From: Acidimicrobiales bacterium
Lineage (GTDB): Bacteria; Actinomycetota; Acidimicrobiia; Acidimicrobiales; Aldehydirespiratoraceae
NCBI GenBank assembly: GCA_965116195.1
Contig: OZ220491.1
Location: 336,042-400,041 of the forward strand
DNA length: 64,000 bases
Direction: 5' to 3'
The translations under genes and the position numbers were made by a program. Shown here piece after piece: positions 8,896 through 26,493 of this stretch (within the stretch, counting starts at the first letter, position 1; the number at the start of each line of letters is the position of its first letter). The notes beneath the pieces were generated by a model, which worked only from the letters and a program-made list of their open reading frames with translations, had not been told where the DNA came from and made no database searches.

Positions 8896-8979
8896 GTCGG
8901 AGTGGCGGAATAGGAAGACGCGCTAGCTTGAGGGGCTAGTGCCCCAAGGGGCGTGGGGGTTCAAGTCCCCCCTCCGACA
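8896..8979 (+). tRNA. tRNA-Leu (anticodon GAG), class II with long variable arm
   Basis: Acceptor stem GTCGGAG/CTCCGAC. Anticodon stem CTAGC/GCTAG with loop TTGAGGG. Variable arm GCCCCAAGGGGC. T-arm GGGGG-TTCAAGT-CCCCC. The sequence closely resembles canonical bacterial tRNA-Leu. CCA is not encoded. Confidence 0.9.
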
Positions 8980-9449
8980 CACTCGTCAGCACGAACGTCA
9001 GATCCCGCAGAGACCTGCCTCCCTCGGATGCTGAACGATTGACAGCAAGTACCTCAGATGGACATCGCTGGACAAGGCCTTGGGTCTTGCTCTGTTGGCG
9101 CTCAACTGACGGAGTCGCCCGACTGTTTGACGGAGGGGTTGGGTTTCGTTGTGAGGGAACGCTAAGTGGAGCCGTGATGACGTTTGAGTTGATAACCGTG
9201 CGTTGTCATATCGGTGATGATCTTTCAGATAAATCTCGCGAATCTGTATGGTAGGACAATGGTCCTCCATACACATGCACGATCAACCCGTCCCGTTGGA
9301 CGATCGGTTGCTGGCGTGAGGTGTCGGCTGGGTCAACCCATGGAGTTCGCCCTTGGGGAAGGTCACGGCTGGGCGACTGCTGCGCGTGCATGGCGTGAAT
9401 TCCGAAGGTCCAGCGTGGAACGGATGTAGCGACAGGAGTCGGGGCCGAA

Positions 9450-10124
9450 GTGTTTCAGGACTACACCATGCGCATCGTTGCTGTCCGCGAGTGGCAGGGT
9501 GCCGCACTTGAGAAGCAACGCTACATGCTGCCCACATCGCCCGGGATCTACGCCTGGATGCTTGATCTTCGTCGGCCGCTTGCTGGACCAGACCAAGATG
9601 GTGATGTCTTGCTTGATCAGATCAATAACTCACTCCGCCCTAGCACCCCTCGCTGCTTCATGGGGAAGGTGCCACCGTACACGGCGGTGTCCCTACACGA
9701 TGACCTGCCACCTCTCACTAATGCAGCGGTTCGTCAAATCAAGGGGATCGCCGCAATGGAGGCCAACGCTGCTGAGTGGGCGTTGTTGTGTCCGACGATG
9801 TTTCAGCGCCCTCTTTACGTCGGCAAGGCGAAGAATCTCCAAAACCGACTGCGCAAACACCTTGCAGGCAAGACAAAGCTCGTATCGCATCTGGAGGCGG
9901 TCGGGCTAACTCTCAACGACTGCGCCATCATACTCGCCGAGGTGCAACCCGCTTCGCCGGACACCTCTGATGATGATGAGGAGGAGGAGGTGCAGGAGTC
10001 CTGGGAAGAGCTTGACGAGGAATCGCTCGCTGGGCTTGACCCGGTGACTCAGGTACTGTTGTCGGCAGCCGAGTCGCTAACGATTCGGATGAGTCGACCG
10101 TTACTCAACGAGAGAATGGATTGA
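9450..10124 (+). CDS. GIY-YIG nuclease-domain protein with large insertion and acidic tail
   Basis: SPGIYAW ... PLYVGKAKNLQNRLRKH ... AESLTIRMSRPLLNE matches the GIY / YxGxAxxLxxRxxxH / ExxxIxxxxPxxN elements. About 85 aa are inserted between the first two elements. An acidic run follows: DTSDDDEEEEVQESWEELDEE. The start could instead be ATG 9468. Confidence 0.6.
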   Translation: MFQDYTMRIVAVREWQGAALEKQRYMLPTSPGIYAWMLDLRRPLAGPDQDGDVLLDQINNSLRPSTPRCFMGKVPPYTAVSLHDDLPPLTNAAVRQIKGIAAMEANAAEWALLCPTMFQRPLYVGKAKNLQNRLRKHLAGKTKLVSHLEAVGLTLNDCAIILAEVQPASPDTSDDDEEEEVQESWEELDEESLAGLDPVTQVLLSAAESLTIRMSRPLLNERMD

Positions 10125-10126
10125 AT

Positions 10127-12196: not shown

Positions 12197-12585
12197 TAAG
12201 CACACTGCCGTCAACTGGCTGGTTTTTCCGCCTTTCCAACTCCTCCTGAGTTTAGTATCCAAGCAGACTTGACAGAGACCAGTCCTTGTGTCTGAGGTAG
12301 CTTTCCTTGAGGGACAGGTCCCGTGGCATCCACCGCTGAGAGGCTGAGGAACCGTATCGTTTGTCATGGCCTCAACGGAGAACAAGGTGTGAGGGCTATG
12401 TCTTCAGGAGGCAAGAGGTGCGGCTATCTCGTGCGAGATTACGAGGCGCTTATGGCAGAGCCTCAAAGATCTGAAGAGTCCGGTCTGGCTTGGTGCGCCT
12501 CTAGTGGCCTGTCGTCCGTGAGGGTTGGAGGCTTGCGGCGGTTCCGTCGGTTGCGGCGGCGCGTCCAGTTCGGCGAGGTTGGATT

Positions 12586-13752
12586 GTGACCCCTATCTAT
12601 CTCGACTACAACGCGTCTGCTCCGATTGACCCCCGGGTTGCCGATGTCATGGCTGGTGTCATCGCCAGCGGCGTGGGCAATGCCTCTTCGGCGCACCCGT
12701 TCGGTTCGGCTCAGCGGGCTCGAGTTGGCACCGCTCGTGAGCAAGTCGCAGCGGCAGTCGGCGGGCGGCCCGGAGACGTTGTCTTCACGGCTGGTGCAAC
12801 GGAGGCAAACAACCTCGCTCTCCGAGGACTCGTTGATGCGCTATCATCAGCGCGGAGTCGAGTGTTGATCTCTGCGGTTGAGCATGCATCTGTGCGAGAG
12901 ACGGCGAGATGGCTTGCTGACGGGGGTCACGCAAAGGTTGATTTCATCCCTGTCACACCCGGCGGGTACGTTGACCTTGATGCGCTTGACGATCTTCTGG
13001 CCGATGATGTCTTGGTCGTTTCGGTCATGCTGGCCAACAGTGAGACGGGTGTGATCAATGACATTCGCGCAGTTGCTGAGCGAACTCATTCTCACGGTGC
13101 TCTCGTGCATACTGACGCAACACAAGCCGTCGGAAGGCTTGGCACTGACATGACGGAGATGCAAGCCGATCTGCTGTCGTTGAGCGGTCACAAGATCTGC
13201 GGACCGGGGGGCGTTGGAGCACTCCTTGCGACAGCACGATGCAGACGACTCATGCACCCGATTGTCTACGGTGGCGGACAGGAAAGCGGACTGCGTTCGG
13301 GCTCGCTCAATGTCGCCGGAACAGTGGGCTTTGGGGTGGCTGCAGAACTCGCAGCGAGCGAATGGAGCACCGACCACGCTCGGGTTTCTGCTCTCCGTGA
13401 TGAACTGGTCTCGCTCATCCAAGCTGAACTCGAGTCAGTAGAACAGAATGGAGATGTGAGCCGTCGGCTCCCGAACACAGCGAACCTCATGTTTCGCGGA
13501 GCCGATGCCGAAGCAGTCCTCGTCAACCTCTACCCGGTTGCAGTGTCGGCGGGCAGTGCCTGCAGCTCTGGGGCCCCTGAACCTTCGCCCGTCCTGCAAG
13601 CAATGGGTCTTGACCGTGCCAGCGCCGCTGCGTCGCTCCGGTTCAGTCTGGGCCGTTTCACCACTTCAGAGGAGGTACAGCAGGCAGCCACTCGCACCAT
13701 CGGCGCTGTTAATTTTGTGCGATCCATGAACCAGGACGACTCATGCGACTGA
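12586..13752 (+). CDS. sspA: cysteine desulfurase (class V aminotransferase; DndA/SspA-type)
   Basis: N-terminus PIYLDYNASAPIDPRV, PLP-lysine motif SLSGHKICGPGGVGAL, active-site cysteine loop SAGSACSSG. It is the first gene of an overlapping four-gene block. Confidence 0.8.
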   Translation: MTPIYLDYNASAPIDPRVADVMAGVIASGVGNASSAHPFGSAQRARVGTAREQVAAAVGGRPGDVVFTAGATEANNLALRGLVDALSSARSRVLISAVEHASVRETARWLADGGHAKVDFIPVTPGGYVDLDALDDLLADDVLVVSVMLANSETGVINDIRAVAERTHSHGALVHTDATQAVGRLGTDMTEMQADLLSLSGHKICGPGGVGALLATARCRRLMHPIVYGGGQESGLRSGSLNVAGTVGFGVAAELAASEWSTDHARVSALRDELVSLIQAELESVEQNGDVSRRLPNTANLMFRGADAEAVLVNLYPVAVSAGSACSSGAPEPSPVLQAMGLDRASAAASLRFSLGRFTTSEEVQQAATRTIGAVNFVRSMNQDDSCD

Positions 13753-14828
13753 CCGAAGCTGCGGAGCCGATCTTTGCTCGCCACGAGACCTTCCATCCTC
13801 GTTACGGCTGGTTCCGCAAGGCGTATGCCACTGCCGCAGCAAGCGAGCGCGGGTTTACTGCCGAAGACGCGCCGGTTGCTATTGGTGTCGGAAAAAACAT
13901 GGTGCGCTCAATCAAGTTTTGGGGTCAGGCGGCGAAGGTAATCACCTCCGATCCCGATTCTGCAAACAAACGGGCTCCCGACATGATCCCGACCGCGTTC
14001 GGACAAGCGTTGTTTGGTCCTGACGGGTGGGACCCTTACATGGAAGATCCAGGAACTGTCTGGCTTCTTCACTGGTTGTTGCTCGCACCTCCGTCGTGGC
14101 TGCCCGTGTGGTGGCTCGCATTTAATGAGTTGCATGCTGTTGACTTCAACGAAGACCTCTTGGCCAGCGTCATCACAACTCACATTGAATCTGCCAGTTC
14201 TTGGTCGTTGCCACACCCTGCCACGGTCACCAAAGATCTCTCCGTGCTCTTTCGTACCTACGCTCCGGCCGTCCACACGGCACGGGCCAGCTTTGAAGAC
14301 CTTCTGGACTGTCCGCTACGTGAACTGGGTTTGATCACCCGTTCGGCCGCAACTGGTAATCATCGGTTCGTGTTGGGTCCAAAGCCAACGCTCCCCGAAG
14401 AGATCGTGAACGTTGCTGTTCTGGACTATCTTGCACGCCGCCAACGGAGCGGGCAGACGGTCACACTGGCGCATCTCGCGAACGAGTCGGGCAGTCCTGG
14501 ACGAGCTTTCAGACTCTCCGAGCGCGACATTTATGAAGCATTGTCGCGAGAAGTAGAGAAAAGATCGTCTCTGGACCTTCTAGCACCGACCGGTGCGCAA
14601 CAACTCGCCTGGACCGACCCGCCTGCCCAAATTGCAGTCGAGATTCTCAACGAGTACTACGAGACGCAACCCGCAGAACCGGCGATCGGTCAACAAGGAG
14701 ATGAGCCCGCAGATCGCGATCTCCTGCCTGATCGCTCGCACGCTGTAATGAGACTCCTTGAGGCAAGTAGTCGTCACCACGACAGAAGTCTCCGGCGGTC
14801 GGATCAGCGACAGGAGCTAGGTGTATGA
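13743..14828 (+). CDS. sspB: DUF4007-type protein (SspB position)
   Basis: The N-terminus FARHETFHPRYGWFRKAY...GVGKNMVRSIKFWGQAAKVI is the hallmark of the DUF4007 family, which accompanies PAPS-reductase-like enzymes. It overlaps the upstream stop by 10 nt and the downstream start by ATGA. Confidence 0.7.
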   Translation: MRLTEAAEPIFARHETFHPRYGWFRKAYATAAASERGFTAEDAPVAIGVGKNMVRSIKFWGQAAKVITSDPDSANKRAPDMIPTAFGQALFGPDGWDPYMEDPGTVWLLHWLLLAPPSWLPVWWLAFNELHAVDFNEDLLASVITTHIESASSWSLPHPATVTKDLSVLFRTYAPAVHTARASFEDLLDCPLRELGLITRSAATGNHRFVLGPKPTLPEEIVNVAVLDYLARRQRSGQTVTLAHLANESGSPGRAFRLSERDIYEALSREVEKRSSLDLLAPTGAQQLAWTDPPAQIAVEILNEYYETQPAEPAIGQQGDEPADRDLLPDRSHAVMRLLEASSRHHDRSLRRSDQRQELGV

Positions 14829-17800
14829 CCTACCTTGCTGACCACATCGCAATCTCGCCGCGCTTCTCTCGTTCGGCGAACCTTGAGCGAGACGTAACTG
14901 CTGTCAATCCGCTTGAGGGTTACGTGGTTACGGCTCGCGCCGCAGATGTTGTGGAGCGTCTCGCAGGCCGCGCCGCGTCAACATCAGCGGGTGGGGCCTG
15001 GTCCATCACAGGACCTTACGGCTCTGGCAAGTCTTCGCTCGCGCTGCTGATTGACGGCGCTTTCGATGGGGCAGGCGCTATCCGTGACAAGGCGCTGGAA
15101 CTACTGAGCGTCGCAACTCCCGACTTGGCTTCAACAATCATCACCGCTCACGAGCGGCACGACACGCTTGAACTCGGGTTTTGCCGAGCTGTAGCGACTG
15201 CACACCGAGAACCAATCAGCCATACGGTTCTTCGCGCTCTTCATTCTGCTGTGATGCGCCGTTTCGGGAGGATCCCGCCGGTGTCGATGTTCAAGGCTGC
15301 ACCTGTGCTGGAAGATGCCTTGGCTGCCGCAGCGAGGGATGATCCTCGCCAGAATGGACCGTCCCCAGCAGCACTCCTAGCGGTAGCTCATTGTCTAGTC
15401 GAGTCTGCCCCTTTGTTGATTGTGGTTGACGAGTTTGGCAAGAACTTGGAGGCAATCGGTAATTCAGCAGCCGCCGACCCATACCTGCTTCAACAACTCG
15501 CGGAGGCAGGCCAAGGCGGTGGCGCTCCGATCTTCACGGTGACGCTTCAGCATCTTTCATTTGAGGACTACTTCACTACTGCAGATAGCTCGGAGCAGCG
15601 CGAGTGGGCCAAGGTGCAGGGTCGGTTTGAAGACGTTCCCTATGCTGACTCGCCGACGCAGACTCGAGCGCTTATCGCAACAGTTTTTGATCTCGACGAT
15701 GCGATTCATGCACGGGTTGATCACTGGGCCAAGAGGTTGGCGGCAGCCATGAGGCGTCTAGGCTTCAAAGATCTGGCAACGCCTGAAGCTATGGCAAAGT
15801 GCTTCCCCCTGCATCCCCTAGCCGTTGCCGTGCTTCCCGAACTGTGTAGCCGGTACGGGCAGAACGAGCGCACACTCTTTTCGTTTTTGTCAGGAAGCGA
15901 GACCACCGCTGTACCGGCGCTCCTCGGCGGAAGGAAACTTGGACGGGGTCCGTTACCTGTCGTTGGCTTGGCCGAGGTGTACGACTACTTCATCGCAGGA
16001 GGCGGCATTGCCAGTTCTTCAGGTGTCACTGCGAGTCGCTGGTTGGAGATTGCGACACGTCTGCGTGACACGCATGGACTCTCTGTTGCAGAGTCAGAGA
16101 TCGCGAAGTCAATCGCAGTTCTAAATCTTGTCGGAGCATCCGGGACAATTCGGGCATCAAGCATGGTGCTCAACTTGATATCCAAGCGCTCTGGACCGAT
16201 AGTTGAGAAACTTGAAGAACGAGGGCTGATCACGTATCGCGCCTTTGCTGACGAATACCGGATCTGGCACGGCAGCGATCTTGACATCCGCCATCTCGCC
16301 GAGCGTGCGGAGGCCGGTCTTGAGAAAGTGCCCTTAATCGATGTCTTGGCACGACTTGATACACCTACGCCCGTTATTGCTGCTCGACACTCAGCCCAAT
16401 ACGACACTCTCCGTGTGTTCACCCGCCGTTATGTGACGAGTTCGGAGAGCGTGATGCCGCCTGACCCGTTCTCCGTAGCGGACGGCGAGTTGTTGTTGGT
16501 CGTGGATGCGGACGGTAGTTGTCCGTCTATCGTTGCCAGCGATCTGAGCAAGCCGGTGGTAGCCGCAGTTCCAGCCACGATTGATCAACTGGAAGTCGCG
16601 GCTCGGAACTTGGCCGCATTCCATCAGGTTATAGAGATGCCTGAGGTCGCTAACGATTGGGTGGCCCGCAATGAACTAGGCGAGCAACTCGCCGAGGCCG
16701 AGGCGAGATTTCACGATGCCCTGATGTCAACTTTTGATCCACATCATTGCAAATGGTATCTTCTTACCAAAGATGGGCCGGAACCACTTCCATCGGGTCG
16801 TGGAACGGTGGCTCTCTCCGCAGCAGCGGATGCTGCGTATGGTTCGGTACCACGTATCGGTAACGAGATGATCAATCGTACGGACGTGACATCGCAGGGT
16901 GCAAAGGCGCGTCGTCTGCTGCTCGCAGGGATGATTGAGCGATCTGGTGAAGCAGATCTCGGCTTTGAGGGGTATGGCCCCGAAATGGCTATGTATCGTG
17001 CCGTCCTCCAACGATCCGGCTTGCATCGTCCCAGGGACGTGAACAGTGGTCCCGTCTTTGCTGAACCCAAAGACAAGTCGTGGCTTTCCGCTTGGCGGAC
17101 CCTGATGACAGAATTCACGCGGGCAAAGACTCATCGGGTCAATCTCAATGACATCTATGGGATGCTGATGTCCCCACCCATCGGTATGAAGGCCGCAGTA
17201 GTTCCTGTGTTTGCCACTGCCGGATTACTCGCTTATCACGATGAGATCGCAATCTATGAGCACGGAACGTTCAAAGCGACGCTTGAGGTCGACATGTCGG
17301 AACGGATGGTGAAGAACCCGGGCCATTTTGAGATCAAGCACTATGCAATCGCGGAAGGTGCCCGCCTAGATGTAATTGAAGCGCTTGCAGCGGAACTTGG
17401 AGTCACAAAGCGTTTGCGAAAGCACAGAGTGGGGAACATCCTCGCGATCGTGGGTCATGTCATTGGCGTGGTGCAGCAACTCGACAACTTCTGTCGTGTG
17501 ACCAACAGTTTGTCAGGAGCAGCGCTCGCGGTGAGAGAGGTTTTGACCACCGCTGTTGAACCGGATGAATTGCTTTTTCAAGCGCTTCCTGAAGCGCTCG
17601 GCTTCCCACAGATTCTTGCATCGGAACCGTACCCGCAACGCGCGGATTATGCACGAGCGTTGGTTCAAGTGGTTGAGGAACTTGGTGGACGGACACGTCG
17701 ATTGAAGGAGGAACTCCGCGATCTGGTGTTTGCACATGCCAATGAGTCGAGACGACGAGCTATCAGTGGTCAGGCATCAGTGATTGAGAACGAGATCGTT

Positions 17801-18307
17801 GACCCAGAAATCCGCTCCTTTGTTCTAGCGATGGCGACTGACGCGTTCGAGGACGATCTTGAGTGGGTCAACAACATCGCGACCGTGGTTGCAAAGCGCG
17901 CCGTTGCTGAGTGGTCAGATGACGATCGCGCCAGATTCGAGTTTGAGTTACCGGCCAAGATGTCTGCCTTCAGACGCTTGTTGGCTCTCCATATAGAGCG
18001 TCGGACTGCTGACGGTGAGTCCTTTGATGCCTTGCGCGTCACTTTTACGCGGTCTGATGGCAAGGAGGACTACCTCGTGCTGGCGCTTGATGACCACATA
18101 CGCAATGCAGTTTGTGGCCCTGTAGATGAGGTCGTGCAGCGACTCACGGAGGTGCTGGGCTCTGAAGTCAAAGCCCGAGAGGCTATCCTCGCCACCTTGG
18201 CAGAACACGTGCTACCTGCTGTCATGCCAACCGCTGTCGCCCCTGTCACACCCATCTGCGACAATGAGATCATCAAAATCAGGACAGCAAAGGCGACTCA
18301 TGGTTGA
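14825..18307 (+). CDS. sspC: large P-loop ATPase (SspC position), 1160 aa
   Basis: Walker A ITGPYGSGKSSLALL and Walker B-like LLIVVDEFGKNLE. Its size and its position between DUF4007 and the PP-loop enzyme fit SspC. Confidence 0.65.
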   Translation: MTYLADHIAISPRFSRSANLERDVTAVNPLEGYVVTARAADVVERLAGRAASTSAGGAWSITGPYGSGKSSLALLIDGAFDGAGAIRDKALELLSVATPDLASTIITAHERHDTLELGFCRAVATAHREPISHTVLRALHSAVMRRFGRIPPVSMFKAAPVLEDALAAAARDDPRQNGPSPAALLAVAHCLVESAPLLIVVDEFGKNLEAIGNSAAADPYLLQQLAEAGQGGGAPIFTVTLQHLSFEDYFTTADSSEQREWAKVQGRFEDVPYADSPTQTRALIATVFDLDDAIHARVDHWAKRLAAAMRRLGFKDLATPEAMAKCFPLHPLAVAVLPELCSRYGQNERTLFSFLSGSETTAVPALLGGRKLGRGPLPVVGLAEVYDYFIAGGGIASSSGVTASRWLEIATRLRDTHGLSVAESEIAKSIAVLNLVGASGTIRASSMVLNLISKRSGPIVEKLEERGLITYRAFADEYRIWHGSDLDIRHLAERAEAGLEKVPLIDVLARLDTPTPVIAARHSAQYDTLRVFTRRYVTSSESVMPPDPFSVADGELLLVVDADGSCPSIVASDLSKPVVAAVPATIDQLEVAARNLAAFHQVIEMPEVANDWVARNELGEQLAEAEARFHDALMSTFDPHHCKWYLLTKDGPEPLPSGRGTVALSAAADAAYGSVPRIGNEMINRTDVTSQGAKARRLLLAGMIERSGEADLGFEGYGPEMAMYRAVLQRSGLHRPRDVNSGPVFAEPKDKSWLSAWRTLMTEFTRAKTHRVNLNDIYGMLMSPPIGMKAAVVPVFATAGLLAYHDEIAIYEHGTFKATLEVDMSERMVKNPGHFEIKHYAIAEGARLDVIEALAAELGVTKRLRKHRVGNILAIVGHVIGVVQQLDNFCRVTNSLSGAALAVREVLTTAVEPDELLFQALPEALGFPQILASEPYPQRADYARALVQVVEELGGRTRRLKEELRDLVFAHANESRRRAISGQASVIENEIVDPEIRSFVLAMATDAFEDDLEWVNNIATVVAKRAVAEWSDDDRARFEFELPAKMSAFRRLLALHIERRTADGESFDALRVTFTRSDGKEDYLVLALDDHIRNAVCGPVDEVVQRLTEVLGSEVKAREAILATLAEHVLPAVMPTAVAPVTPICDNEIIKIRTAKATHG

Positions 18308-19142
18308 CACCCGGCACATATGTGGCATCTCGGGCGGGAAGGACTCTTCGGCCTTGGCGGTATACCTGCGAGATCGTGTACCCGAGATGGAGTACTTCTT
18401 CTGCGATACAGGTGCCGAACTCCCCGAGACCTACGAGTACATGACCCGCCTTGAGGTTACTCTGGGCAAGCCCATTGAGCGACTCAACGAACGGCGCGGA
18501 TTCGATCACTGGTTCGAGGTATATCGCGGAGCGCTTCCTTCCCCCCAGATGCGTTGGTGCACCAAGCAGATGAAGATCTATCCGATCGAGGAATGGGTCG
18601 CTGACGACGCGGTTGTGTCATATGTAGCCATCCGCGCTGATGAGGCAAACAGGAAAGGTTACATCTCCACTAAGCCAAATATCAAGTCTGTCTTCCCGTT
18701 CATTGAGGACGGAATCGACCACAGTGGTGTCATGCGGATACTTGATGATGCAGGCATCGGATTGCCGTCCTACTACGACTGGCGAACGCGATCTGGCTGC
18801 TACTTCTGTTTTTACCAACGCAAAGCAGAATGGGTCGGACTCGCAGACAGGCACCCTGACCTGTTTGAGCGAGCGGTTGCCATTGAGCAGAAGGTCCTCC
18901 AAGATGCCGGTGTTGACAGAGATGCAGACTTCAGCGATAGAGCCATGTCGGGCCGACAGTACACGTGGACTGGGAACGAGACCCTCGTCGAGTTGATCAC
19001 ACGCAGGGATGAGATCCTCGAGCGACACGAGGCCGCACTGCAACGTGAGGCACGGCAGAGACCCAACCGACCTCTTGTTGAGGCATTGGCGGGCGTTCTG
19101 GACGACGAGAGCGACGACATCTGTACGGTTTGCGCGCTATAG
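18300..19142 (+). CDS. sspD: PAPS-reductase-like PP-loop ATP pyrophosphatase (DndC/SspD-type)
   Basis: The PP-loop SGGKDS (ICGISGGKDSSALAVY) lies near the N-terminus when ATG 18300 is used. That start overlaps the upstream stop as ATGGTTGA. Conserved Cys residues follow (RSGCYFCF, CTVCAL). Confidence 0.8.
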   Translation: MVDTRHICGISGGKDSSALAVYLRDRVPEMEYFFCDTGAELPETYEYMTRLEVTLGKPIERLNERRGFDHWFEVYRGALPSPQMRWCTKQMKIYPIEEWVADDAVVSYVAIRADEANRKGYISTKPNIKSVFPFIEDGIDHSGVMRILDDAGIGLPSYYDWRTRSGCYFCFYQRKAEWVGLADRHPDLFERAVAIEQKVLQDAGVDRDADFSDRAMSGRQYTWTGNETLVELITRRDEILERHEAALQREARQRPNRPLVEALAGVLDDESDDICTVCAL

Positions 19143-19157
19143 GAGGAGTATTGGACG

Positions 19158-20177
19158 GTGGATGAGGTCGGTGTCGTCATCAAGGGGTCGGTCGCTTTGA
19201 GCGAGAAACTTGTAAGGCATCTGGCTCGGATGGTCGTTTCCGAAGCGGATGACGTCGGGCTTGTGGATCTTGGGGAGATAGTCGCTGGGGTGGCCAGGGA
19301 TGCCCTACCGGTAACGGATGACCTTGTTGACGCACTAAGCCTCACACGCGTTGGCCGCCACTTGGCACTGCGAGACACCAAGCGTGTACGCGCGAAACTG
19401 GCTCTGATGGAGATTGGTCGCCCAGCGACCAAAGAGGAGATAGAGGAGGTCGCAGACCAGAAAGGATTTGCTATCACAAGTGTAGGGACCGCGCTGTCCA
19501 GTATCGATTCGATCGCACGTGCAGACAAGTCCCGCTGGGGACTTATTGAGTGGATTGATGATGTCTATGAGGGCATCTCTGCTGAGATTCAACAGCGAAT
19601 CAATGAGCACAACGGTGCAGTGCCATTGACATTCCTGCTCAAGGATATTTCTGAGCGGTTTGGCGTAAACGAGGGTAGCATTCGGTCATATGTAGCAACA
19701 AGACAGTTCAACGTGGCGGACGGCATGGTAAGCCTCGCTAGCGCGAGCAACTACAACTACCGGCCGGTGGAGGATGTCGCAACCCGTAACAAGCATGGCG
19801 AACTTTGTTGGGATTTTCCGGTCAAGGCTCAGTACTTGAAGGGGATCTCGATTGATGGCTTTCCTCCTGAGCTCGCGCGGGTACTTGGCTGTGGTCCAAA
19901 TGACCGCCGTGAGGTGCGCGTGGCCTCGCCCGATGGATGCGATCCCATAAGCGTCATCTGGAGGTTGTCCTCCGTCAGCGGTGCTGCGCAAATTGGTAAG
20001 GTTCGGGACGCTCTTCAAAGAGCAGGTGCAACTGCTGGTCGCTACGCTCGAATCGTGATTGCCGACGAAGGTTGCGCAGTTCGGTTTGAACTTGTTGAGA
20101 ATGCTCAGCCTTCTACGGAGTTGTTGACCGCGGACGATCTCCTCGCACGAATGAAAAACCGCCGACGGATCAGCTAG
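19158..20177 (+). CDS. hypothetical protein with HARE-HTH-like winged-helix segment
   Basis: GTG start 15 nt after the sspD stop, behind AGGAGG. The segment IGRPATKEEIEEVADQKGFAITSVGTALSSIDSIARADKSRWGLIEW follows the HARE-HTH pattern ending G-W-L-x-W. A second HTH-like stretch reads FLLKDISERFGVNEGSIRSYV. Confidence 0.45.
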   Translation: MDEVGVVIKGSVALSEKLVRHLARMVVSEADDVGLVDLGEIVAGVARDALPVTDDLVDALSLTRVGRHLALRDTKRVRAKLALMEIGRPATKEEIEEVADQKGFAITSVGTALSSIDSIARADKSRWGLIEWIDDVYEGISAEIQQRINEHNGAVPLTFLLKDISERFGVNEGSIRSYVATRQFNVADGMVSLASASNYNYRPVEDVATRNKHGELCWDFPVKAQYLKGISIDGFPPELARVLGCGPNDRREVRVASPDGCDPISVIWRLSSVSGAAQIGKVRDALQRAGATAGRYARIVIADEGCAVRFELVENAQPSTELLTADDLLARMKNRRRIS

Positions 20178-22397
20178 ATGCTTGCCGATGTCTCAACGCT
20201 GCGACGCAGTTTCTACAAGCTTCCGGAGGACCCGTTCGCGCGTGAGATACTCATTCCGTCGTTCCAAGAAGCGATCTCAGTACGCGGTGTGTTCGGATGG
20301 TTCAGCTCAAGTTGGATATCGAGGCTCGCTCCTGGGCTAGCGATGTACCTCCAACATCCCGAGACCCGAACCATTGAGATGACCGTCTCGCCGAAATTGT
20401 TTGAGTCAGAGCGAAAGGTTATAGAGCGGGCTGTCCACCTAACAGATGAGGAATCTGCCCATCGTATTGAGCATGTTTTTACTAATGGACGCGATGATGT
20501 TGATGCGCTCGCTGCTCACGCGCTCGACTGCCTCGGATGGATGCTGGCGACTGGACAACTCCGACTTCGGATCGCTGTACCTGAGCCTGGTTCCAACTTC
20601 CACCCGAAGATGTGGGGCTTTGGTGACGACCGCGATTGTGTAATTGCGAACGGCTCTGGGAATGCAACTGGACGAGGGATCGTTGCTGGTGTTGAGCAAA
20701 TGACTGTCACGGTGAGTTGGGACGATCACGACAACGAGGTCTTCGAACGTGCGGAGGCGGCTTTGGAAGATTGGCTGAATGGGAGGAGCATTGGCATCAA
20801 CCGCATCCTAGAACTTCCCGAGGCCATAGAAGCTCGGATCATTGAGACAGCCCCGGATATCGCACCAACCGAATCCGACTACTTTGACGCGGTTGAAGCG
20901 GACGGCAACCCCGGCTGGGCGGCGGATCCGCACGAGTCGCTTCGCCGTCGTTTCGCAAGTCCCGTGGTAGCTGCTCCGCCGGTTCTGCAGATTCCTTCGT
21001 GGCTCAGATGGCGCGATGGTGACTACGGCTTCCAAGGTGAGGCCGTTGACGCCTGGGAGCAGTCGGAGCCATCCGAGCGCGGCATTCTCGAGATGGCAAC
21101 CGGTGCAGGCAAAACGCTGACGGCACTCGTCTGTGCGACACGCCTCCAGCAAAGGCATCCGGATCGTCCTCTTCTGATGGTGGTGTCGGTACCGTCGCTA
21201 ACGCTCGTGGCTCAATGGCGCACGGAAATCGCGAAATTTGGGCTTCGCGCCGTAGCCCCCTCCCTCGAATCAAGCACCGATGAGGCACTCAGCCGAGCGC
21301 TCCGTCAACTACGGCTTGGTGGAACAGTGGCGCTCGTTGTTACCAACCTGATGCTCTGCGATCCGCGTTTCCAGGCTACCTTGCGACAAGGCGGCGATGC
21401 TGCAACGCTCCTTCTCATAGCGGATGAAGCTCATGGCCTCGGTGCTGACGGCTTTGTCAAGAACAAGCCGAATTTCTTCGAAAAGCGACTGGCGTTGACT
21501 GCTACTCCCATTCGGCAATACGACCCGGACGGTACGGAAGAGATATTCGCCTTCTTCGGAAAACCTGTATACACGTTCGGGCTTGGGCAGGCGATTGGAT
21601 TCTGTCTGACCCCGTATGAGTACTACGTGCATGCTGCGACTCTCGCCACGGACGAGCTTCATGAGTTTGTCGCGTTGACCAAACGTATCGGCGCGGCGAT
21701 CAGACAAGATGACGATGAACGTCGTAATGCGCTCTCGATCCAACGCCGGAGGATCATTGAGACGGCTGAGGCCAAGTACTCGTTGCTCCGCGCTGTACTT
21801 GAGATTCGACAGATTCACAATCTATCTCATGCATTCGTGTATGCCTCAGCCAAGGATCCAGAACAGTACGACCGCATCGCAGCGCTTCTAGACGATCTTG
21901 GGATCAGGTGGGCAGGGATCACTCAGGCAACTTCGTCAAGTACCATTCGACATGCGTTCGAGTCGTTCGCAGACGGAGGCTTCCAGGTTTTGCTTGCCAA
22001 AAAACTCCTAGATGAAGGAGTCGATGTTCCAAGTACCAGGGAGGCGTTCATTGTAGCGTCGTCGTCTGTGGAGCGCGAGTGGATTCAGCGACGTGGCCGA
22101 GTGCTCCGCCAACATCCTGACAAGCCATTCGCGATCATTCACGACTTCCTTGCCCTTCCCCCGGCATCTCATCTAGATGAGGTCTCGTCGGCGCGGTCAA
22201 TCATCGACACAGAACTCAAACGCGCCTACGCCTTCGCGCAGTATGCCAGCAATCCGACTGGACCTAGCGGAGCGTTTGCGAGCATAACCGAGATTCGTGA
22301 GGCGTACTGGCCTTCGGGTTCGACAGTATCAGGCAACTTGCGATACCCTGGGGAGCTATTCGTCGCGCCGGGCACCCCCCGAGGAGTACCATGGTAA
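20178..22397 (+). CDS. PLD/HKD-family nuclease domain fused to SF2 (DEAH) helicase
   Basis: The ATG directly follows the upstream TAG. It has a single HKD-like motif HPKMWGFGDDRDCVIANGSGN. Helicase motifs are I MATGAGKT, II LLIADEAHG, III LTATP and VI QRRGRVLR. Confidence 0.8.
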   Translation: MLADVSTLRRSFYKLPEDPFAREILIPSFQEAISVRGVFGWFSSSWISRLAPGLAMYLQHPETRTIEMTVSPKLFESERKVIERAVHLTDEESAHRIEHVFTNGRDDVDALAAHALDCLGWMLATGQLRLRIAVPEPGSNFHPKMWGFGDDRDCVIANGSGNATGRGIVAGVEQMTVTVSWDDHDNEVFERAEAALEDWLNGRSIGINRILELPEAIEARIIETAPDIAPTESDYFDAVEADGNPGWAADPHESLRRRFASPVVAAPPVLQIPSWLRWRDGDYGFQGEAVDAWEQSEPSERGILEMATGAGKTLTALVCATRLQQRHPDRPLLMVVSVPSLTLVAQWRTEIAKFGLRAVAPSLESSTDEALSRALRQLRLGGTVALVVTNLMLCDPRFQATLRQGGDAATLLLIADEAHGLGADGFVKNKPNFFEKRLALTATPIRQYDPDGTEEIFAFFGKPVYTFGLGQAIGFCLTPYEYYVHAATLATDELHEFVALTKRIGAAIRQDDDERRNALSIQRRRIIETAEAKYSLLRAVLEIRQIHNLSHAFVYASAKDPEQYDRIAALLDDLGIRWAGITQATSSSTIRHAFESFADGGFQVLLAKKLLDEGVDVPSTREAFIVASSSVEREWIQRRGRVLRQHPDKPFAIIHDFLALPPASHLDEVSSARSIIDTELKRAYAFAQYASNPTGPSGAFASITEIREAYWPSGSTVSGNLRYPGELFVAPGTPRGVPW

Positions 22398-22594
22398 GTA
22401 ACTTCGAGAGGATCCTTGAGGAAATCACCAAACATGCCAGCGATGTATCTGAGGACTTTGACGCGGAGACCTTGATCGGATTGTCTATGAAACTCGTTGA
22501 CGAAGAAGACAAGCATAGGACGAAGAAGGTGAACATCAATCAGATCTTTGCGAACTTGATTGAGCAGGCAGCGAACGCAGAGGGGCCGAGATGA
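22391..22594 (+). CDS. small acidic helical protein (67 aa)
   Basis: It is coupled on both sides: ATGGTAA overlaps the helicase stop and ATGA overlaps the next start. It has no recognisable motif, and support comes only from this operon geometry. Confidence 0.45.
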   Translation: MVSNFERILEEITKHASDVSEDFDAETLIGLSMKLVDEEDKHRTKKVNINQIFANLIEQAANAEGPR

Positions 22595-24786
22595 TTCGGT
22601 TCACCCGCATCCAGATCGAGAACTTCGTTTGTTTTGAGAAACTCGTCATAGAGCCTTCTGTGGATCCTGAACGCCCGCTCACGGTCATCCGAGCAGAGAA
22701 CGCCTCGGGGAAGACGACATTTCTACGCGCAGTCCGCTGGGGGATGTACGGAGAGCAAGGGCTTCCGGGTAGCCAGACTAGCTTTGGAGTTCAACCAACC
22801 TTCTGGAAACCCACGACATCCGGTATTGAGACCCGGGTTGTGATTGAGTTTACCTCGGACGGTTCGACTCGCCATGATATAAGTTCCGGAACTGCTGATA
22901 CTCGATACCGACTTGTACGGACGGTGCGCACGATTGCACGCGATCAGGAACCTGGTTACCAGCGGATAAACGAAAACGCTCAACTGATGGTGCGGAGTCC
23001 CAGTGGGGCGTGGGAGGAATATACATATGGTGTGGACCACGTGATTGAGTTGCTTCTCCCCTGGGAGCTACGAGACTTCTTCGTGATGGACGCTGACGAG
23101 GCTTCAGAATACGTCGGAGGCAGCGAGAGCATGACAATCAGTCGAAGCGAAGTTGACGAGAAGACGACCTACGCGATCAACGCTTTACTCGGTATCAGAG
23201 TCTTTCAAGATGCTGCCGGCCGGGTTGCTGAGGCTGAGCGGTTGTTCGGCAAGAAGGCCACCAAAGCCATCGGTGACTCCGACCTCAATGAGATGCAGGC
23301 GAAACTAGACGAGGTCCGATGCCAGATCAGAGAGTTGGAGGACAAGAAAGGGAAGAGTGAGCGTGAACTCGCCGACCTAAAGGACAATCGCGCTCAGCAA
23401 CGTGATAGGCTAGATGAGACACTCAAAGGCGTAGGCGCACTTGAAGAACTCAGGAAGCGACTCGCTCAAAGCGATCGTGACATAAGTCGAACTACCAAGG
23501 ACTATGAGTCCGCCTTGGCATCGCTCGGAGGTGTGCTTGAAGCACCGTCGCTTTTCGCAAAACTGGCGCACTCTCAGATAACGGCCGTCGTCAGTTTTCT
23601 ACAACCAATGCACGACAGCGGACAGATCCCACAACGTCACCTCGGGTTCGTTCGTGGACTACTTGAGTCTGGAAACTGCATTTGCGGTGAGGACCTTGCA
23701 CAACAGGGTCCCCGCCGTAGTCATGTCGAAGATCAACTGGCTGCCTCTGAGTCGGCTGCTGAGCACGCGAACTACCTCGGGCACGTGTTCGAGGTAGGTC
23801 GAGAGCTTTTGCACCTTGCCGACAACGCAGATTGGTCAGACGAAGCAGACCGTGCGGAAGCAAGGCTCGCAGAAACCGAACAGCGATTGTCTGACCTTCG
23901 TACCGAGCGAGAGGACATTGATAAGAAACTAGACTCTATCGATGAGTCGGAAATTTCGTCAATCCACGAGGAGATCAAAGCCCTCGACATTCAGATCGAC
24001 CGAAGCACCGCAGAGAACTCAGAGTATGATAACCGTCTTCCAAGTCTTCAGAGTGAAGCAGATTCTCTCAACAAAAAGATCCACAAACGGCAGGACGGAG
24101 AGAATGCTGCGAAGGGTCACCGCCGAGCCGAAGACCTAGCGGGTGTAATCCATCGTATCTTGACGAACGCCTGTCAGACCATCCGAAACGTCCAAGTCAA
24201 GGAACTCTCCAATGAGATGAACCGGTTGTTCGCAACGATGGTAGATAACGTCACCGAGGATGAAACCGATGTCAGTCAGACTGGAAAGGAAACAATTCGG
24301 ACAATCACGCAAGTAGGAGTACGCCCCACCTCTGGCGACAACTTCGAGATATTCGCCATCAACAATTACGGACGTGACAAGCCGCATATCGAGATCAACG
24401 GGGCTAGTCGTCGGGTGATTGCCTTGGCCTTCGTGCTCGCACTTTGTCACGAGTCAAGGACCCGTGCTCCACTAGTTGCGGACTCCTTACTAAATATGAT
24501 GTCAGGTGCGGTACGTCGCAACACTCTTGCTGCGACGGCCGAAGAGTCCGGTCAACCGATCCTGCTTCTGACTGGTGCCGACCTTGATGCTGAGAGTGAG
24601 GTTGAGACCGTTGCAAGCAAGGGCGGAGCGACATACACGCTTACGGCACAGTGGCACAAAGAGGTCGTGAACCTTACGGACTCGAGGGCAATCTCCCTTG
24701 TCTGCGTATGCGGACCTCGGCAGTACTGCGATGTGTGCGAACGGGTTGGGCAAGCAAACCGGCCTGAATGGTCAAAGCGAAGGTAG
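22591..24786 (+). CDS. DndD/SMC-Rad50-like coiled-coil ABC ATPase
   Basis: N-terminus FTRIQIENFVCFE...AENASGKTTFLRAVRWGMYGE (Walker A). A long charged coiled-coil middle contains a CxC element (GNCICGEDL). The C-terminus has a signature-like NGASRRVIALAFVLAL, a Walker B/D-loop PLVADSLLNMM, QPILLLTGADLD, and a terminal CVCGPRQYCDVC. Confidence 0.75.
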   Translation: MIRFTRIQIENFVCFEKLVIEPSVDPERPLTVIRAENASGKTTFLRAVRWGMYGEQGLPGSQTSFGVQPTFWKPTTSGIETRVVIEFTSDGSTRHDISSGTADTRYRLVRTVRTIARDQEPGYQRINENAQLMVRSPSGAWEEYTYGVDHVIELLLPWELRDFFVMDADEASEYVGGSESMTISRSEVDEKTTYAINALLGIRVFQDAAGRVAEAERLFGKKATKAIGDSDLNEMQAKLDEVRCQIRELEDKKGKSERELADLKDNRAQQRDRLDETLKGVGALEELRKRLAQSDRDISRTTKDYESALASLGGVLEAPSLFAKLAHSQITAVVSFLQPMHDSGQIPQRHLGFVRGLLESGNCICGEDLAQQGPRRSHVEDQLAASESAAEHANYLGHVFEVGRELLHLADNADWSDEADRAEARLAETEQRLSDLRTEREDIDKKLDSIDESEISSIHEEIKALDIQIDRSTAENSEYDNRLPSLQSEADSLNKKIHKRQDGENAAKGHRRAEDLAGVIHRILTNACQTIRNVQVKELSNEMNRLFATMVDNVTEDETDVSQTGKETIRTITQVGVRPTSGDNFEIFAINNYGRDKPHIEINGASRRVIALAFVLALCHESRTRAPLVADSLLNMMSGAVRRNTLAATAEESGQPILLLTGADLDAESEVETVASKGGATYTLTAQWHKEVVNLTDSRAISLVCVCGPRQYCDVCERVGQANRPEWSKRR

Positions 24787-24793
24787 GTATCAA

Positions 24794-25270
24794 ATGTACT
24801 TTTCTCACATTCTTACGAGTAGTCGGTGCTCTCTCTATCTGCCGAAGGATGCACGCGAGGACATCTTTCGACTCGTGTCCGCTCACAGGCAGACCAAGAC
24901 AACGCGTCAGATGGCTCCGTTCCGTCGTCAGGCTGATTTCTGGCTTCTATGTATAGGCGTCGCTCTAGCTGGCGGTTTACCACCCTTGGAGGGTTCACCA
25001 AACCCACCGAAAGGTTGGGGATATAAGTTCAATGACACGCGGGATGTACAACTTCCAACAGAGGTATACAACCTCTTGTCAGTGGTGGCGTTTGAGGCAC
25101 TAAACCACGATCCTGATCGGATCAGCGATCCGGTTCAAATCATCAACGTCGCGAACGGCTTGGCGGGTGCTGCATGCGATCAAGTACTTGAAAAGTTGAC
25201 GAGCAAGGACCTTCGACTGACTCCACTGGACAAGGCGCTAGAACTGGCCCGCTCTACTTACAACTCCTAA
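24794..25270 (+). CDS. hypothetical protein (158 aa), last gene of the ssp-linked operon
   Basis: ATG 24794 follows GAAGGTAGG and lies 8 nt after the upstream stop. There is no catalytic motif. The helix RRQADFWLLCIGVALAGG is reminiscent of small Dnd-locus-associated proteins, but this is unverified. Confidence 0.5.
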   Translation: MYFSHILTSSRCSLYLPKDAREDIFRLVSAHRQTKTTRQMAPFRRQADFWLLCIGVALAGGLPPLEGSPNPPKGWGYKFNDTRDVQLPTEVYNLLSVVAFEALNHDPDRISDPVQIINVANGLAGAACDQVLEKLTSKDLRLTPLDKALELARSTYNS

Positions 25271-25671
25271 GCCTGGATTCGGTCTGGGGGTGGCTTGGCA
25301 TCATCTCGTGTGCTGGTAGTGACGGTCGAGGGAGACTGCTGGAGCATGCACCGCAGAGTTGGCCACGTTAATCTGGCTTGTTTGAAGAAGCACCTCGGGC
25401 TTGATGCGGCAACTTCCGAGCCTTCTTCTATTTCTGTTGAAATGTCTTTGATTACGACAACATCCTCGGATAGTACACCAACCTTCTCAGATAGTTTTGT
25501 TATAGCCTCACCATTAGTCTTGACATCACCGGCTAAACTTTCAAACCGATCTTTCAAGTCATCAAAACGGTTGTTCATATTGTTGGTATGGTCATCGGAT
25601 CGGTTGCTGAACGGTCTCATAAGATTCGCAAAAACAGCCACAAACACAACTAATGGCAGACCAACGCTCAT
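25267..25671 (-). CDS. small membrane-anchored coiled-coil protein (paralog 1)
   Basis: N-terminal TM helix LPLVVFVAVFANL followed by a heptad-like region NRFDDLKDRFESLAGDVKTNGEAITKLSEKVGVLSEDV. It lies in a conspicuously AT-rich patch. Confidence 0.55.
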   Translation of the reverse strand: MSVGLPLVVFVAVFANLMRPFSNRSDDHTNNMNNRFDDLKDRFESLAGDVKTNGEAITKLSEKVGVLSEDVVVIKDISTEIEEGSEVAASSPRCFFKQARLTWPTLRCMLQQSPSTVTTSTRDDAKPPPDRIQA

Positions 25672-25832
25672 CCCTCAGGCGATGGCATCCTCTCCCATAT
25701 TAGATCTCCCTTGCTATTATTGGCTTTCCGCTATTTGCATAGAATATCATATTATACTATAATTGTCGACATGCGGCGTTGTTGAGGATTTTTGTTTGGC
25801 GAGGGGACTGAAGTCAGCCTCAAGTTGAACAG

Positions 25833-26177
25833 TTACGCGGAGGCAGGCTCAGCTTTCTGTTGTGATGGGGTGGTGTTCGGGTCTTTGTCGGGTTGTGCCA
25901 CACCCTGATCTCGCACTTTGATAGGAGCAAGTGGTATATGAGGTATGATCATGTCCACTTTTGTTTCAAGTGCAGTGACACGGTTGGATAGGTTTTGGAT
26001 AGCCGTTCCGTTCTCTTTTACATCGTCACTTACTCTATCTATCTTGTTGTTTGTGCTATCCAAACGTTTATTTATGTCATCTAAACGTTTGGTAAAGCCA
26101 TTCAAGGCGAAGACTAGAATAGCCCCAAACACGACAGCGGATACGCTAATGATGAGGGAGTCTGCTGTGATATCCAT
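25833..26177 (-). CDS. small membrane-anchored coiled-coil protein (paralog 2)
   Basis: TM helix LIISVSAVVFGAILVFAL followed by KRLDDINKRLDSTNNKIDRVSDDVKENGTAIQNLSNRVTALETKV. It aligns by eye with paralog 1 (shared DVK-NG-AI--LS--V). It also lies in the AT-rich patch. Confidence 0.6.
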   Translation of the reverse strand: MDITADSLIISVSAVVFGAILVFALNGFTKRLDDINKRLDSTNNKIDRVSDDVKENGTAIQNLSNRVTALETKVDMIIPHIPLAPIKVRDQGVAQPDKDPNTTPSQQKAEPASA

Positions 26178-26277
26178 GTAGGTCTCCTTTGGTTTTGCGG
26201 GTATTGAGGCTCCCTGCTAGCTGCGTAGCGTGCCACACTATATCAAATGTCGCCGATCCCGAGGTAGTTCACCCGGT

Positions 26278-26493
26278 CTAGCCGGCCAGCCGGTCGAGGA
26301 TTCGCTTGTGACGCTCCATTGACGCGGCTAGTCGCTCCTGAAAGCGGTCGTCTGCTCGGCGTGACTGGATGTGGCTGTCGATTGCGTTTCGGATCGTCGC
26401 AGACACGCTCACGCCGTCTACCTCGGCGCTGAAATCAAGCGCCTCGGCCTGCTCGGTCGGCGGCCTCAAGGTCATTTTTTGACTCTCGGCCAT
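26278..26493 (-). CDS. ribbon-helix-helix (CopG/Arc-type) protein, antitoxin-like
   Basis: 71 aa. An N-terminal beta-strand-like MTLRPPTEQAEAL is followed by two helices (VSVSATIRNAIDSHI...). No adjacent toxin ORF is present. Confidence 0.5.
   Translation of the reverse strand: MAESQKMTLRPPTEQAEALDFSAEVDGVSVSATIRNAIDSHIQSRRADDRFQERLAASMERHKRILDRLAG

Follow-up and report, generated by a model that had tools for sequence, protein, structure and literature searches.

The window analyzed here, the whole stretch of 64,000 nucleotides (nt) from contig OZ220491.1 of an Acidimicrobiales bacterium, contains five open reading frames (ORFs) at 19158-25270 that directly continue the genes sspABCD and form one operon with them. 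SspABCD-type enzymes install phosphorothioate (PT) marks. Four of the five ORFs very likely encode the proteins PbeA, PbeB, PbeC, and PbeD, and the fifth, gene 1, which lies between sspD and pbeA, encodes a conserved accessory protein that is predicted to bind DNA. Taken as a whole, the operon probably specifies a defence system that tells self from non-self by PT marks and is assembled from known modules, with SspABCD as the writer and PbeABCD as its restriction-type partner; this judgment covers the overall picture, while the identity of the parts is more secure than that and the roles of the individual subunits are far less so. It is a new pairing of known parts and not a new system, in which the new elements are Ssp as the writer partner, the conserved accessory gene 1, and the modular distribution of gene 1 among genomes. 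A previous reading made from this DNA without database searches (the sequence-only reading) had seen a module of restriction type, as found alongside PT writers, welded to sspABCD, and this holds; it had also held the domain set to be unlike that of any known PT-associated system, and had named ordinary PbeABCD orthologues as the outcome that would speak against its proposal, which is what profile comparison finds for four of the five genes.

Organization of the sspABCD-pbeABCD operon

The coordinates, plus-strand orientation, and sizes of the five ORFs were verified and agree with those first given. The genes of the operon are listed below with lengths in amino acids (aa), expectation values (E), and the evidence for each assignment, which for gene 1 includes an AlphaFold2 (AF2) model; PAPS stands for 3'-phosphoadenosine-5'-phosphosulfate, PLD for phospholipase D, SF2 for superfamily 2, and ABC for ATP-binding cassette.

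12586-13752, plus strand: sspA, cysteine desulfurase (PADLOC SspA, E 2.9e-124; Pfam Aminotran_5, E 7e-68)
13743-14828, plus strand: sspB, DUF4007 protein (PADLOC SspB, E 7.6e-99; Pfam DUF4007, E 3e-79)
14825-18307, plus strand: sspC, BrxC-like ATPase, 1160 aa (PADLOC SspC, E 3.4e-295, full length)
18300-19142, plus strand: sspD, PAPS-reductase-like protein, 280 aa from the ATG at 18300, a start read from the sequence (PADLOC SspD, E 8.7e-110; Pfam PAPS_reduct)
19158-20177, plus strand: gene 1, predicted multi-winged-helix accessory protein, 339 aa, GTG start (homologues, AF2 model)
20178-22397, plus strand: pbeA, putative single-HKD (PLD) nuclease with XPB/Rad25-like SF2 helicase, 739 aa (PADLOC, TIGR04095, motifs)
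22391-22594, plus strand: pbeB-type small acidic protein, 67 aa (position, size, -7 nt overlap with pbeA)
22591-24786, plus strand: pbeC, putative CxC ABC ATPase, 731 aa (PADLOC PbeC, Pfam AAA_23, CIC motif)
24794-25270, plus strand: pbeD-type protein, predicted tandem ribbon-helix-helix-like, 158 aa (place after pbeC, remote homology)

The naming of the upstream genes as sspABCD is borne out by the PADLOC models for SspA to SspD, and all that is expected of an SspABCD writer is present in one contiguous, overlapping cluster: the desulfurase SspA, the DUF4007 protein SspB, the BrxC-like SspC, and the PAPS-reductase-like SspD. Read from the sequence, the junctions from sspD through gene 1, pbeA, pbeB, and pbeC to pbeD measure 15, 0, -7, -4, and 7 nt, so that the first four values of the sequence-only reading stand and its last, 8 nt, does not. 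The genes sspA-D are also joined by overlaps, with sspD starting at 18300 and overlapping sspC by 8 nt, and none of the nine junctions between sspA and pbeD exceeds 15 nt. No convincing internal terminator was found between sspA and pbeD, the run of plus-strand genes continues without interruption from 9450 to 25270, and the interval 12586-25270 is one long operon. Homologues of the same five genes, keeping this order and these very short junctions, were found in 52 of the 80 related loci described below, and because of this conservation the five are not chance ORFs.

PbeA and PbeC

The product of gene 2 matches the PADLOC model PDLC02707 with an E of 7.3e-155 over residues 13-692 of its 739 residues, and its helicase half matches TIGR04095, the "DNA phosphorothioation system restriction enzyme" (E 2.9e-97), with 326.5 bits, which falls below the 600-bit cutoff of that model. 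The protein has an HKD motif (H142-x-K144) followed by GSGN, a Walker A motif GAGKT at residue 309, and a DEAH box at residue 416; the motifs named in the sequence-only reading, the H142/K144 pair, the DEAH box, and the Walker A of the ATPase encoded by gene 4, are thus all present. Its Pfam domains are ResIII and Helicase_C, and the closest relatives in the PDB are the XPB/Rad25 helicases. In the case of the 731-aa product of gene 4, the best PADLOC match is to PbeC (E 3.5e-41), followed by DndD (E 3.7e-19). The protein has a Walker A motif ENASGKTT in its N-terminal region, an AAA_23/DndD-like architecture (Pfam AAA_23), a coiled coil of ~400 residues, and a CIC sequence at 363-365 that forms a CxC zinc-hook motif, which is CVC in the homologue at locus L002. 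A CxC zinc hook defines the ABC ATPases that are sisters of DndD, and PbeC belongs with these and not with the structural maintenance of chromosomes (SMC) proteins (PMC10853773). On the strength of these profiles and motifs, gene 2 is assigned as pbeA and gene 4 as pbeC.

PbeC has a second cysteine cluster, CVC...CxxC, at its extreme C terminus (residues 705-716, window positions 24700-24740), which is kept in the L002 homologue as CDC...CSIC and which may be a zinc-binding element additional to the mid-coil CxC hook.

The small PbeB- and PbeD-type proteins

The 67-aa product of gene 3 has an isoelectric point of 4.7, and its gene shares 7 nt with pbeA and 4 nt with pbeC, with the 7-nt overlap conserved in 36 of 43 related loci. 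It is assigned as PbeB by its size and by gene order in comparison with Haloterrigena jeotgali.

Gene 5, whose 158-aa product had been described as having no recognizable motif, proves more informative than that, as the protein is predicted to fold into two beta-alpha-alpha repeats, agrees with PbeD in size and in position, and shows remote homology to TIGR04062. Its relatives are invariably encoded by the gene after pbeC. The AF2 model (mean predicted confidence, pLDDT, of 74) presents a strand-helix-helix unit twice, the pattern expected of a tandem ribbon-helix-helix protein like DndE, and a DndE-type fold is accordingly a prediction, as yet unproven, that agrees with the published re-annotation of PbeD as a DndE cognate (PMC10853773). 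In profile-profile comparison with hhalign, the gene 5 family aligned with a member of TIGR04062, "DNA phosphorothioation-associated protein 4," with 92% probability (E 6.6e-7), and this member is encoded on a Pseudanabaena plasmid, close to the genes for PbeA and PbeC; the family profile also aligned, with 99.95% probability, with the 148-aa protein encoded after pbeC on the cultured-isolate plasmid CP099618.1. Profile searches with gene 5 returned hundreds of unnamed proteins of 150-170 aa, among which there was no named haloarchaeal PbeD. By position, size, and remote homology we accept gene 5 as a putative pbeD.

Gene 1 encodes a predicted multidomain DNA-binding protein

Gene 1 begins with a GTG codon preceded by the Shine-Dalgarno sequence GGAGGAG. 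Direct scans of its product against Pfam, PADLOC, and NCBIfam gave no match. A large protein collection yielded 83 homologues, most of which are 500-590 aa long and have an additional N-terminal part of ~200 aa; among the 68 homologues scanned for domains, this part contains Sigma70_r4 in 60, Sigma70_r3 in 17, and in a few a motif like the helix-hairpin-helix of the RNA polymerase alpha subunit C-terminal domain (alpha-CTD). The window protein is without the sigma-like N terminus and begins exactly where the conserved family core begins, and for this reason we regard it as a naturally shortened form; similarly short ORFs are present in three other loci. It is this core, and not the sigma-like part, that holds the invariant residues of the family. 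In comparison with the closest relatives (window 19143-19160 against L003:8830-10000), the window is missing the ~1.1 kb that codes for the N-terminal alpha-CTD-like and sigma region-4 parts, and the shortened gene has acquired a strong Shine-Dalgarno sequence and a GTG start 15 nt after sspD.

The AF2 model of the core (pLDDT 84) consists of tandem winged helices at about residues 1-195, a beta-rich domain at about 215-315, and a basic C-terminal helix. Foldseek found weak likeness of the winged helices to SelB, Dcc1, and UFL1 (E 1e-3 to 5e-2) and of the beta domain to plant B3 DNA-binding domains (E 0.03-0.17; for LEC2, a TM score of 0.55 at E 0.17), which serves as a lead only, and searching the whole model against PDB folds returned nothing at E<=0.001. 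When the family profile was compared with PDB sequences, sigma region 4, a part absent from the window copy, was the sole match. The protein had been called HARE-HTH-like (HTH, helix-turn-helix) in the sequence-only reading, a label that finds no confirmation: the winged helices look generic, and no HARE-HTH profile matched gene 1 in Pfam or stood among the 25 commonest of the 45 Pfam families matched by the 68 homologues (E<=0.1). A relationship to the triple winged-helix module of SspB as a paralogue was considered and rejected, with an hhalign probability of 0.8%. The product of gene 1 is best described as a predicted multidomain DNA-binding protein, and its family may be the "MTaX1" that Rakesh et al. 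name without detail.

Gene 1 loci in other genomes

A scan of one genome per species gave a set of 80 gene 1 loci, including two first found by exact protein look-up, which were sorted by tblastn with the window proteins and the proteins of two representative loci into the following classes.

Class A, 26 loci: sspABCD, gene 1, pbeABCD (the arrangement of the window)
Class B, 20 loci: a different upstream module, gene 1, pbeABCD
Class P, 6 loci: gene 1, pbeABCD, with no recognized writer
Class C, 18 loci: sspABCD, gene 1, GIY-YIG nuclease, DndB-like protein, SNF2 helicase
Class D, 10 loci: gene 1 by itself, at contig ends, or near decayed genes

The closest loci are in Acidimicrobiales genomes, with 64% identity for gene 1 and ~80% for PbeA. 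The distance from the gene 1 stop to the pbeA start has a median of 2 nt in 54 loci. In a neighbor-joining tree of the gene 1 core, class C splits off first, followed by the separation of class A from class B; this tree and the conserved context indicate that gene 1 is a stable part of the cassette and that it tracks at the deepest level the effector module and then the writer module.

All 80 loci come from metagenome-assembled genomes (MAGs), and the taxa represented are Acidimicrobiia, Gamma- and Alphaproteobacteria, Acidobacteriota, Chloroflexota, Latescibacteria, Gemmatimonadetes, and Spirochaetia. Many of these MAGs have the names of sponge symbionts (Poriferisodalis, Poriferisocius, Spongiisociaceae, Poriferihabitaceae), and sponge microbiome projects are presumably also the source of many bins with generic names. 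The distribution of the 80 MAGs, many of them sponge-named, over at least eight phyla or classes suggests horizontal spread bound to this habitat.

The upstream set of class B comprises a 485-aa protein with weak similarity to SspD/BrxP (PAPS reductase) and a cysteine desulfurase, and further a 667-aa PDC-M33A-like protein, a 288-aa PDC-M33B-like protein, a DUF6339 protein, and a 497-aa protein (L032:1132-9005; L001, L033, L040, L062, L064, L066-L068, and others), and it may be a third kind of sulfur, perhaps PT, modification module. The class C effectors are a GIY-YIG nuclease of 157 aa, a DndB/DGQHR protein of 489 aa (Pfam DndB, E 2e-29), and an SNF2 helicase of 487 aa (L058:11173-14692; L047, L050, L051, L057, L059, L063, L071-L076, L078, L079, L082). 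This trio is a candidate alternative Ssp-linked effector module, and is perhaps a split analogue of SspE.

Pbe loci beyond the gene 1 genomes

The pairing of Ssp with Pbe also occurs in a cultured bacterium, the Sphingomonadaceae isolate OTU29MARTA1, whose plasmid CP099618.1 encodes a cysteine desulfurase, a DUF4007 protein, SspC, SspD, PbeA, and 74-aa, PbeC, and 148-aa proteins in one run of overlapping or nearly abutting frames, with pbeA overlapping sspD by 4 nt and with generic annotation only. In comparison with the window, this plasmid is without gene 1, and the protein identities are 27-45%. One metagenomic contig likewise has sspABCD directly followed by pbeABCD without gene 1, and another has pbeABCD beside a gene for an SspE-like GmrSD protein and a DUF4007 gene. 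We found no paper describing the sspABCD-pbeABCD operon or the gene 1 accessory protein in the literature that could be searched, which is incomplete.

A sigma-like protein adjoins Pbe genes in an annotated but as yet uncharacterized island on the plasmid pTHAF33_d of Ruegeria sp. THAF33 (NZ_CP045388.1), where dndC, dndD, dndE, a cysteine desulfurase gene, an unnamed gene on the opposite strand, and the gene for a 1026-aa "sigma factor-like helix-turn-helix DNA-binding protein" are followed by pbeABCD and a gene for a DGQHR protein. The gene for the 1026-aa protein ends on the first base of pbeA, and the protein contains alpha-CTD-like and sigma region-4 parts and is a remote homologue of the gene 1 family, with an alignment of 334 columns (hhalign 95.5%, E 1.4e-8) that include the winged-helix part retained in the window. 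The Ruegeria island is like the window in its succession of writer genes, sigma-like/winged-helix gene, and pbeA-small gene-pbeC-pbeD, and in having a DGQHR gene; it is unlike the window in its writer, which is dndCDE with a cysteine desulfurase, in its 1026-aa accessory protein, whose alpha-CTD-like and sigma region-4 parts are missing from the window copy, and in the place of the DGQHR gene, which is downstream there and upstream in the window. On an Aurantiacibacter plasmid a methyltransferase gene and pbeABCD are accompanied by a gene for a shorter sigma-like protein, of which only sigma region 4 matches the gene 1 family, and a haloarchaeal plasmid also pairs Pbe genes with a methyltransferase. 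A sigma-like/winged-helix accessory protein thus recurs near Pbe genes with three different modification partners.

Comparison with known PT-associated systems

The comparator for the four pbe genes is the cassette of Haloterrigena jeotgali A29 described by Xiong et al. in 2019, which encodes a helicase-type PbeA, a 66-aa PbeB, an AAA_23-type PbeC, and a 152-aa PbeD, on one transcript directly after the PT-writer genes (PMC6459918). In that haloarchaeon DndCDEA-PbeABCD gave ~10^4-fold antiviral protection only if the host was PT-modified and the virus was not; every one of the four pbe genes was required, and viral DNA replication was blocked without visible degradation (PMC6459918). Rakesh, Aravind, and Krishnan subsequently re-annotated PbeA as an HKD nuclease with an SF2 helicase, PbeB as a fast-evolving small protein, PbeC as a CxC ABC ATPase, and PbeD as the DndE cognate (PMC10853773). 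The window cassette is like that of H. jeotgali in its four-gene order and protein sizes (739, 67, 731, and 158 aa), in the HKD and SF2 helicase parts of PbeA, in the AAA_23 ABC ATPase with a CxC motif as PbeC, and in its place directly after a PT writer. It is unlike it in four respects: the writer here is SspABCD (BrxC-like SspC and DUF4007 SspB, with no DndD or DndE) where that of H. jeotgali is DndCDEA; gene 1, an additional gene, separates the writer from pbeA; the host is bacterial, with its closest relatives in Acidimicrobiales MAGs; and PbeB and PbeD have diverged too far for direct profile matches.

With SspABCD-SspE and SspABCD-SspFGH (Xiong 2020; Wang 2021, PMC8092258), the operon shares the writer and a restriction-type partner encoded next to sspD. 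Neither PADLOC SspE nor Pfam GmrSD matched any of the ten proteins scanned, SspE itself being a DUF262/GmrSD_N and DUF1524 protein. SspFGH is a three-gene module in which SspF has a Walker A motif and SspH an FtsK/SpoIIIE-like C terminus (PMC8092258); identity with it, judged by this description only, was rejected, as the five proteins have no FtsK/HerA-type Pfam domain and differ in number and sizes. Models for DndF, DndG, or DndH, whose presence in PADLOC is unchecked, were not among the PADLOC matches listed for the five proteins (for gene 4, the best 25 of 72).

A proposed mechanism and its alternatives

In the mechanism that we propose, SspABCD, by homology, would write PT marks on host DNA, and dimers of PbeC, linked by their CxC hooks and carrying PbeD as a small DndE-like DNA binder, would scan DNA using ATP. 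PbeA would be the translocating HKD effector that blocks the replication of unmarked DNA or cuts it, and PbeB a regulator or inhibitor that restrains PbeA. Gene 1 would provide an extra DNA-binding subunit or regulator that most likely helps to target or license the effector, either by supplying additional DNA recognition or by coupling the modification state to the effector. We infer that Ssp-type PT is the self mark for this Pbe module, and the roles of the individual subunits and of gene 1 likewise. The Ssp-Pbe pairing recurs in 26 loci in which sspBCD, gene 1, and pbeABCD follow one another and in the direct operons without gene 1, and gene 1 is coupled to the effector side, to judge by the small gap to pbeA, by the order of branching in its tree, and by the position of the remote Ruegeria homologue directly upstream of pbeA.

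Several considerations weigh against this reading. The Pbe module has been demonstrated with double-stranded, Dnd-type PT, whereas the characterized Ssp systems make single-stranded PT, and for PT modification and PT dependence in this host the evidence is the genetic linkage to sspABCD. Surveys place most PbeAC pairs away from dndCD and doubt that Pbe is a PT-dependent restriction module (PMC6459918, PMC10853773), and the haloarchaeal experiments showed no cutting of viral DNA, although PbeA has an HKD domain (PMC6459918). As for the small proteins, the PbeB-type product has no match in PADLOC, Pfam, or NCBIfam scans, as is to be expected of a family described as rapidly evolving, and could not be tied by sequence to archaeal PbeB. 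The homology of gene 5 to PbeD is remote only: none of its 44 close and 71 distant relatives matched Pfam DndE or PADLOC, and since the distant relatives are unmatched as well PADLOC perhaps has no PbeD model, and the AF2 model has no significant fold match in the PDB. Finally, the window copy of gene 1 lacks the alpha-CTD-like and sigma region-4 N terminus found in almost all of its relatives and could be partly disabled, and a function for it can be drawn only from its fold class and gene context.

One important consideration is whether gene 1 is a working subunit at all, since it might be a transcriptional controller like the C proteins of restriction-modification systems, which would bind the DNA of its own operon and time or limit the effector genes (pbe, or GIY-YIG/DndB/SNF2) relative to the writer genes. 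This is possible, though we think it unlikely. The sigma-70 region-4 HTH and the rarer region-3 and alpha-CTD-like parts of the full-length relatives are what such a protein might be expected to have, and gene 1 always directly precedes the effector genes and abuts them, which is where C-protein genes classically lie; however, the family, which combines several winged helices with a beta domain in 500-590 aa, is far larger than known controllers, its invariant residues are in the core and not in the sigma-like part, and the window copy has dispensed with that part yet still has a strong ribosome-binding site and a core that is intact and well predicted. There is, moreover, little intergenic room for an operator between gene 1 and pbeA.

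A more ambitious role, which we put forward with considerable doubt, is that the gene 1 family is a dedicated reader or adaptor that senses the sulfur-modification state of DNA and licenses whichever effector module follows. The gene sits between two types of writer (SspABCD and the cysteine-desulfurase/PAPS-reductase-like/PDC-M33-like set) and two types of effector (PbeABCD and GIY-YIG with DndB-like and SNF2 proteins), and its phylogeny tracks the writer/effector combinations. If this were true, gene 1 would serve PT-based immunity as a modular coupling factor, and Pbe modules could read single-stranded, Ssp-type PT.

It is also improbable, in our estimate, that the Pbe genes and gene 1 are a self-contained system that merely shares an island and a transcript with sspABCD and senses infection instead of missing PT, for example by loss or modification of the small PbeB inhibitor, upon which PbeA would cut DNA including that of the host in an abortive infection. 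Rakesh et al. propose this alternative and observe that CxC/Pbe systems often occur without Dnd genes (PMC10853773), and Xiong et al. found dndCD within 10 kb of just 42% of PbeAC pairs (PMC6459918); the 6 class P loci with no recognized writer nearby, the 20 class B loci with a different upstream module, and the haloarchaeal and Aurantiacibacter plasmids that pair Pbe genes with methyltransferases are consistent with it. It accounts less well for the frames of sspD, gene 1 where present, and pbeA, which overlap or abut in the window, in 26 MAG loci, and by 4 nt on the plasmid of the cultured isolate, for the sulfur-handling or methylating module that adjoins almost every Pbe locus, and for the PT dependence of the sole experimental system (PMC6459918).

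Last, the suggestion in the sequence-only reading of a categorically new PT-dependent restriction system with the hybrid logic of Lamassu/DdmABC, in which an SMC-type sensor would license a PLD-helicase, has in its favor a superficially similar order of nuclease-helicase, tiny protein, and coiled-coil ATPase, but it is highly improbable and is refuted by PADLOC, in which PbeA and PbeC are matched at full length and Lamassu models are missing from all 20 matches of gene 2 and from the best 25 of 72 of gene 4 (PbeC and DndD only), by a CxC zinc hook and ~400-residue coiled coil that are typical of the DndD/CxC clade and not of an SMC (PMC10853773), and by gene sizes and order that are those of the published pbeABCD (PMC6459918).

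Returning to the Ssp-Pbe defence operon, its interest is that PbeABCD function has so far been shown only with a Dnd writer in one haloarchaeon and that true PT dependence is disputed, so that the recurrent frame-to-frame joining of pbeABCD to the unrelated Ssp writer in dozens of genomes constitutes independent genetic evidence for Pbe modules as generic PT partners. A bacterial version of Pbe is testable in standard hosts; gene 1 is a conserved, unstudied component that may explain effector targeting or control; and the related loci hint at a possible third sulfur-modification module. Current views are not overturned by this operon, which extends a known family and is relevant to work on PT-based immunity.

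Surroundings of the island

The defence island that contains the operon has a tRNA gene directly upstream of it and further genes on either side, as follows.

8896-8980, plus strand: tRNA-Leu(GAG) (ARAGORN)
9450-10124, plus strand: GIY-YIG-like nuclease, 224 aa (weak Pfam GIY-YIG, E 2.6e-4, below the curated cutoff; 4-nt overlap with the next gene)
10121-12196, plus strand: DGQHR/DndB-like protein of the ParB superfamily, 691 aa (TIGR03187, E 2e-10; Pfam DndB, E 1e-5; neither match reaches its curated cutoff; VIDGQHR motif)
25267-25671, minus strand: ORF of 134 aa
25833-26177, minus strand: ORF of 114 aa (weak DUF948-like coiled coil)

The tRNA-Leu gene is suggested as a possible integration site and left boundary of the island, and only suggested because a search at the right border for an attachment-site repeat of its 3' end found none. 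The GC content of ~0.60-0.62 drops to 0.51-0.56 over 16-26 kb and is 0.62-0.66 past 26 kb, and this dip suggests horizontal acquisition. Orthologues of the GIY-YIG/DGQHR pair, with 58-67% identity (58-65% for the GIY-YIG member), lie downstream of pbeD in L005 and L007, whereas the pair is upstream of sspA here, which indicates that it moves as a unit within the island. After pbeD, an AT-rich stretch at 25270-26280, where the two minus-strand ORFs lie, contains the only strong promoter-like sites of the region.

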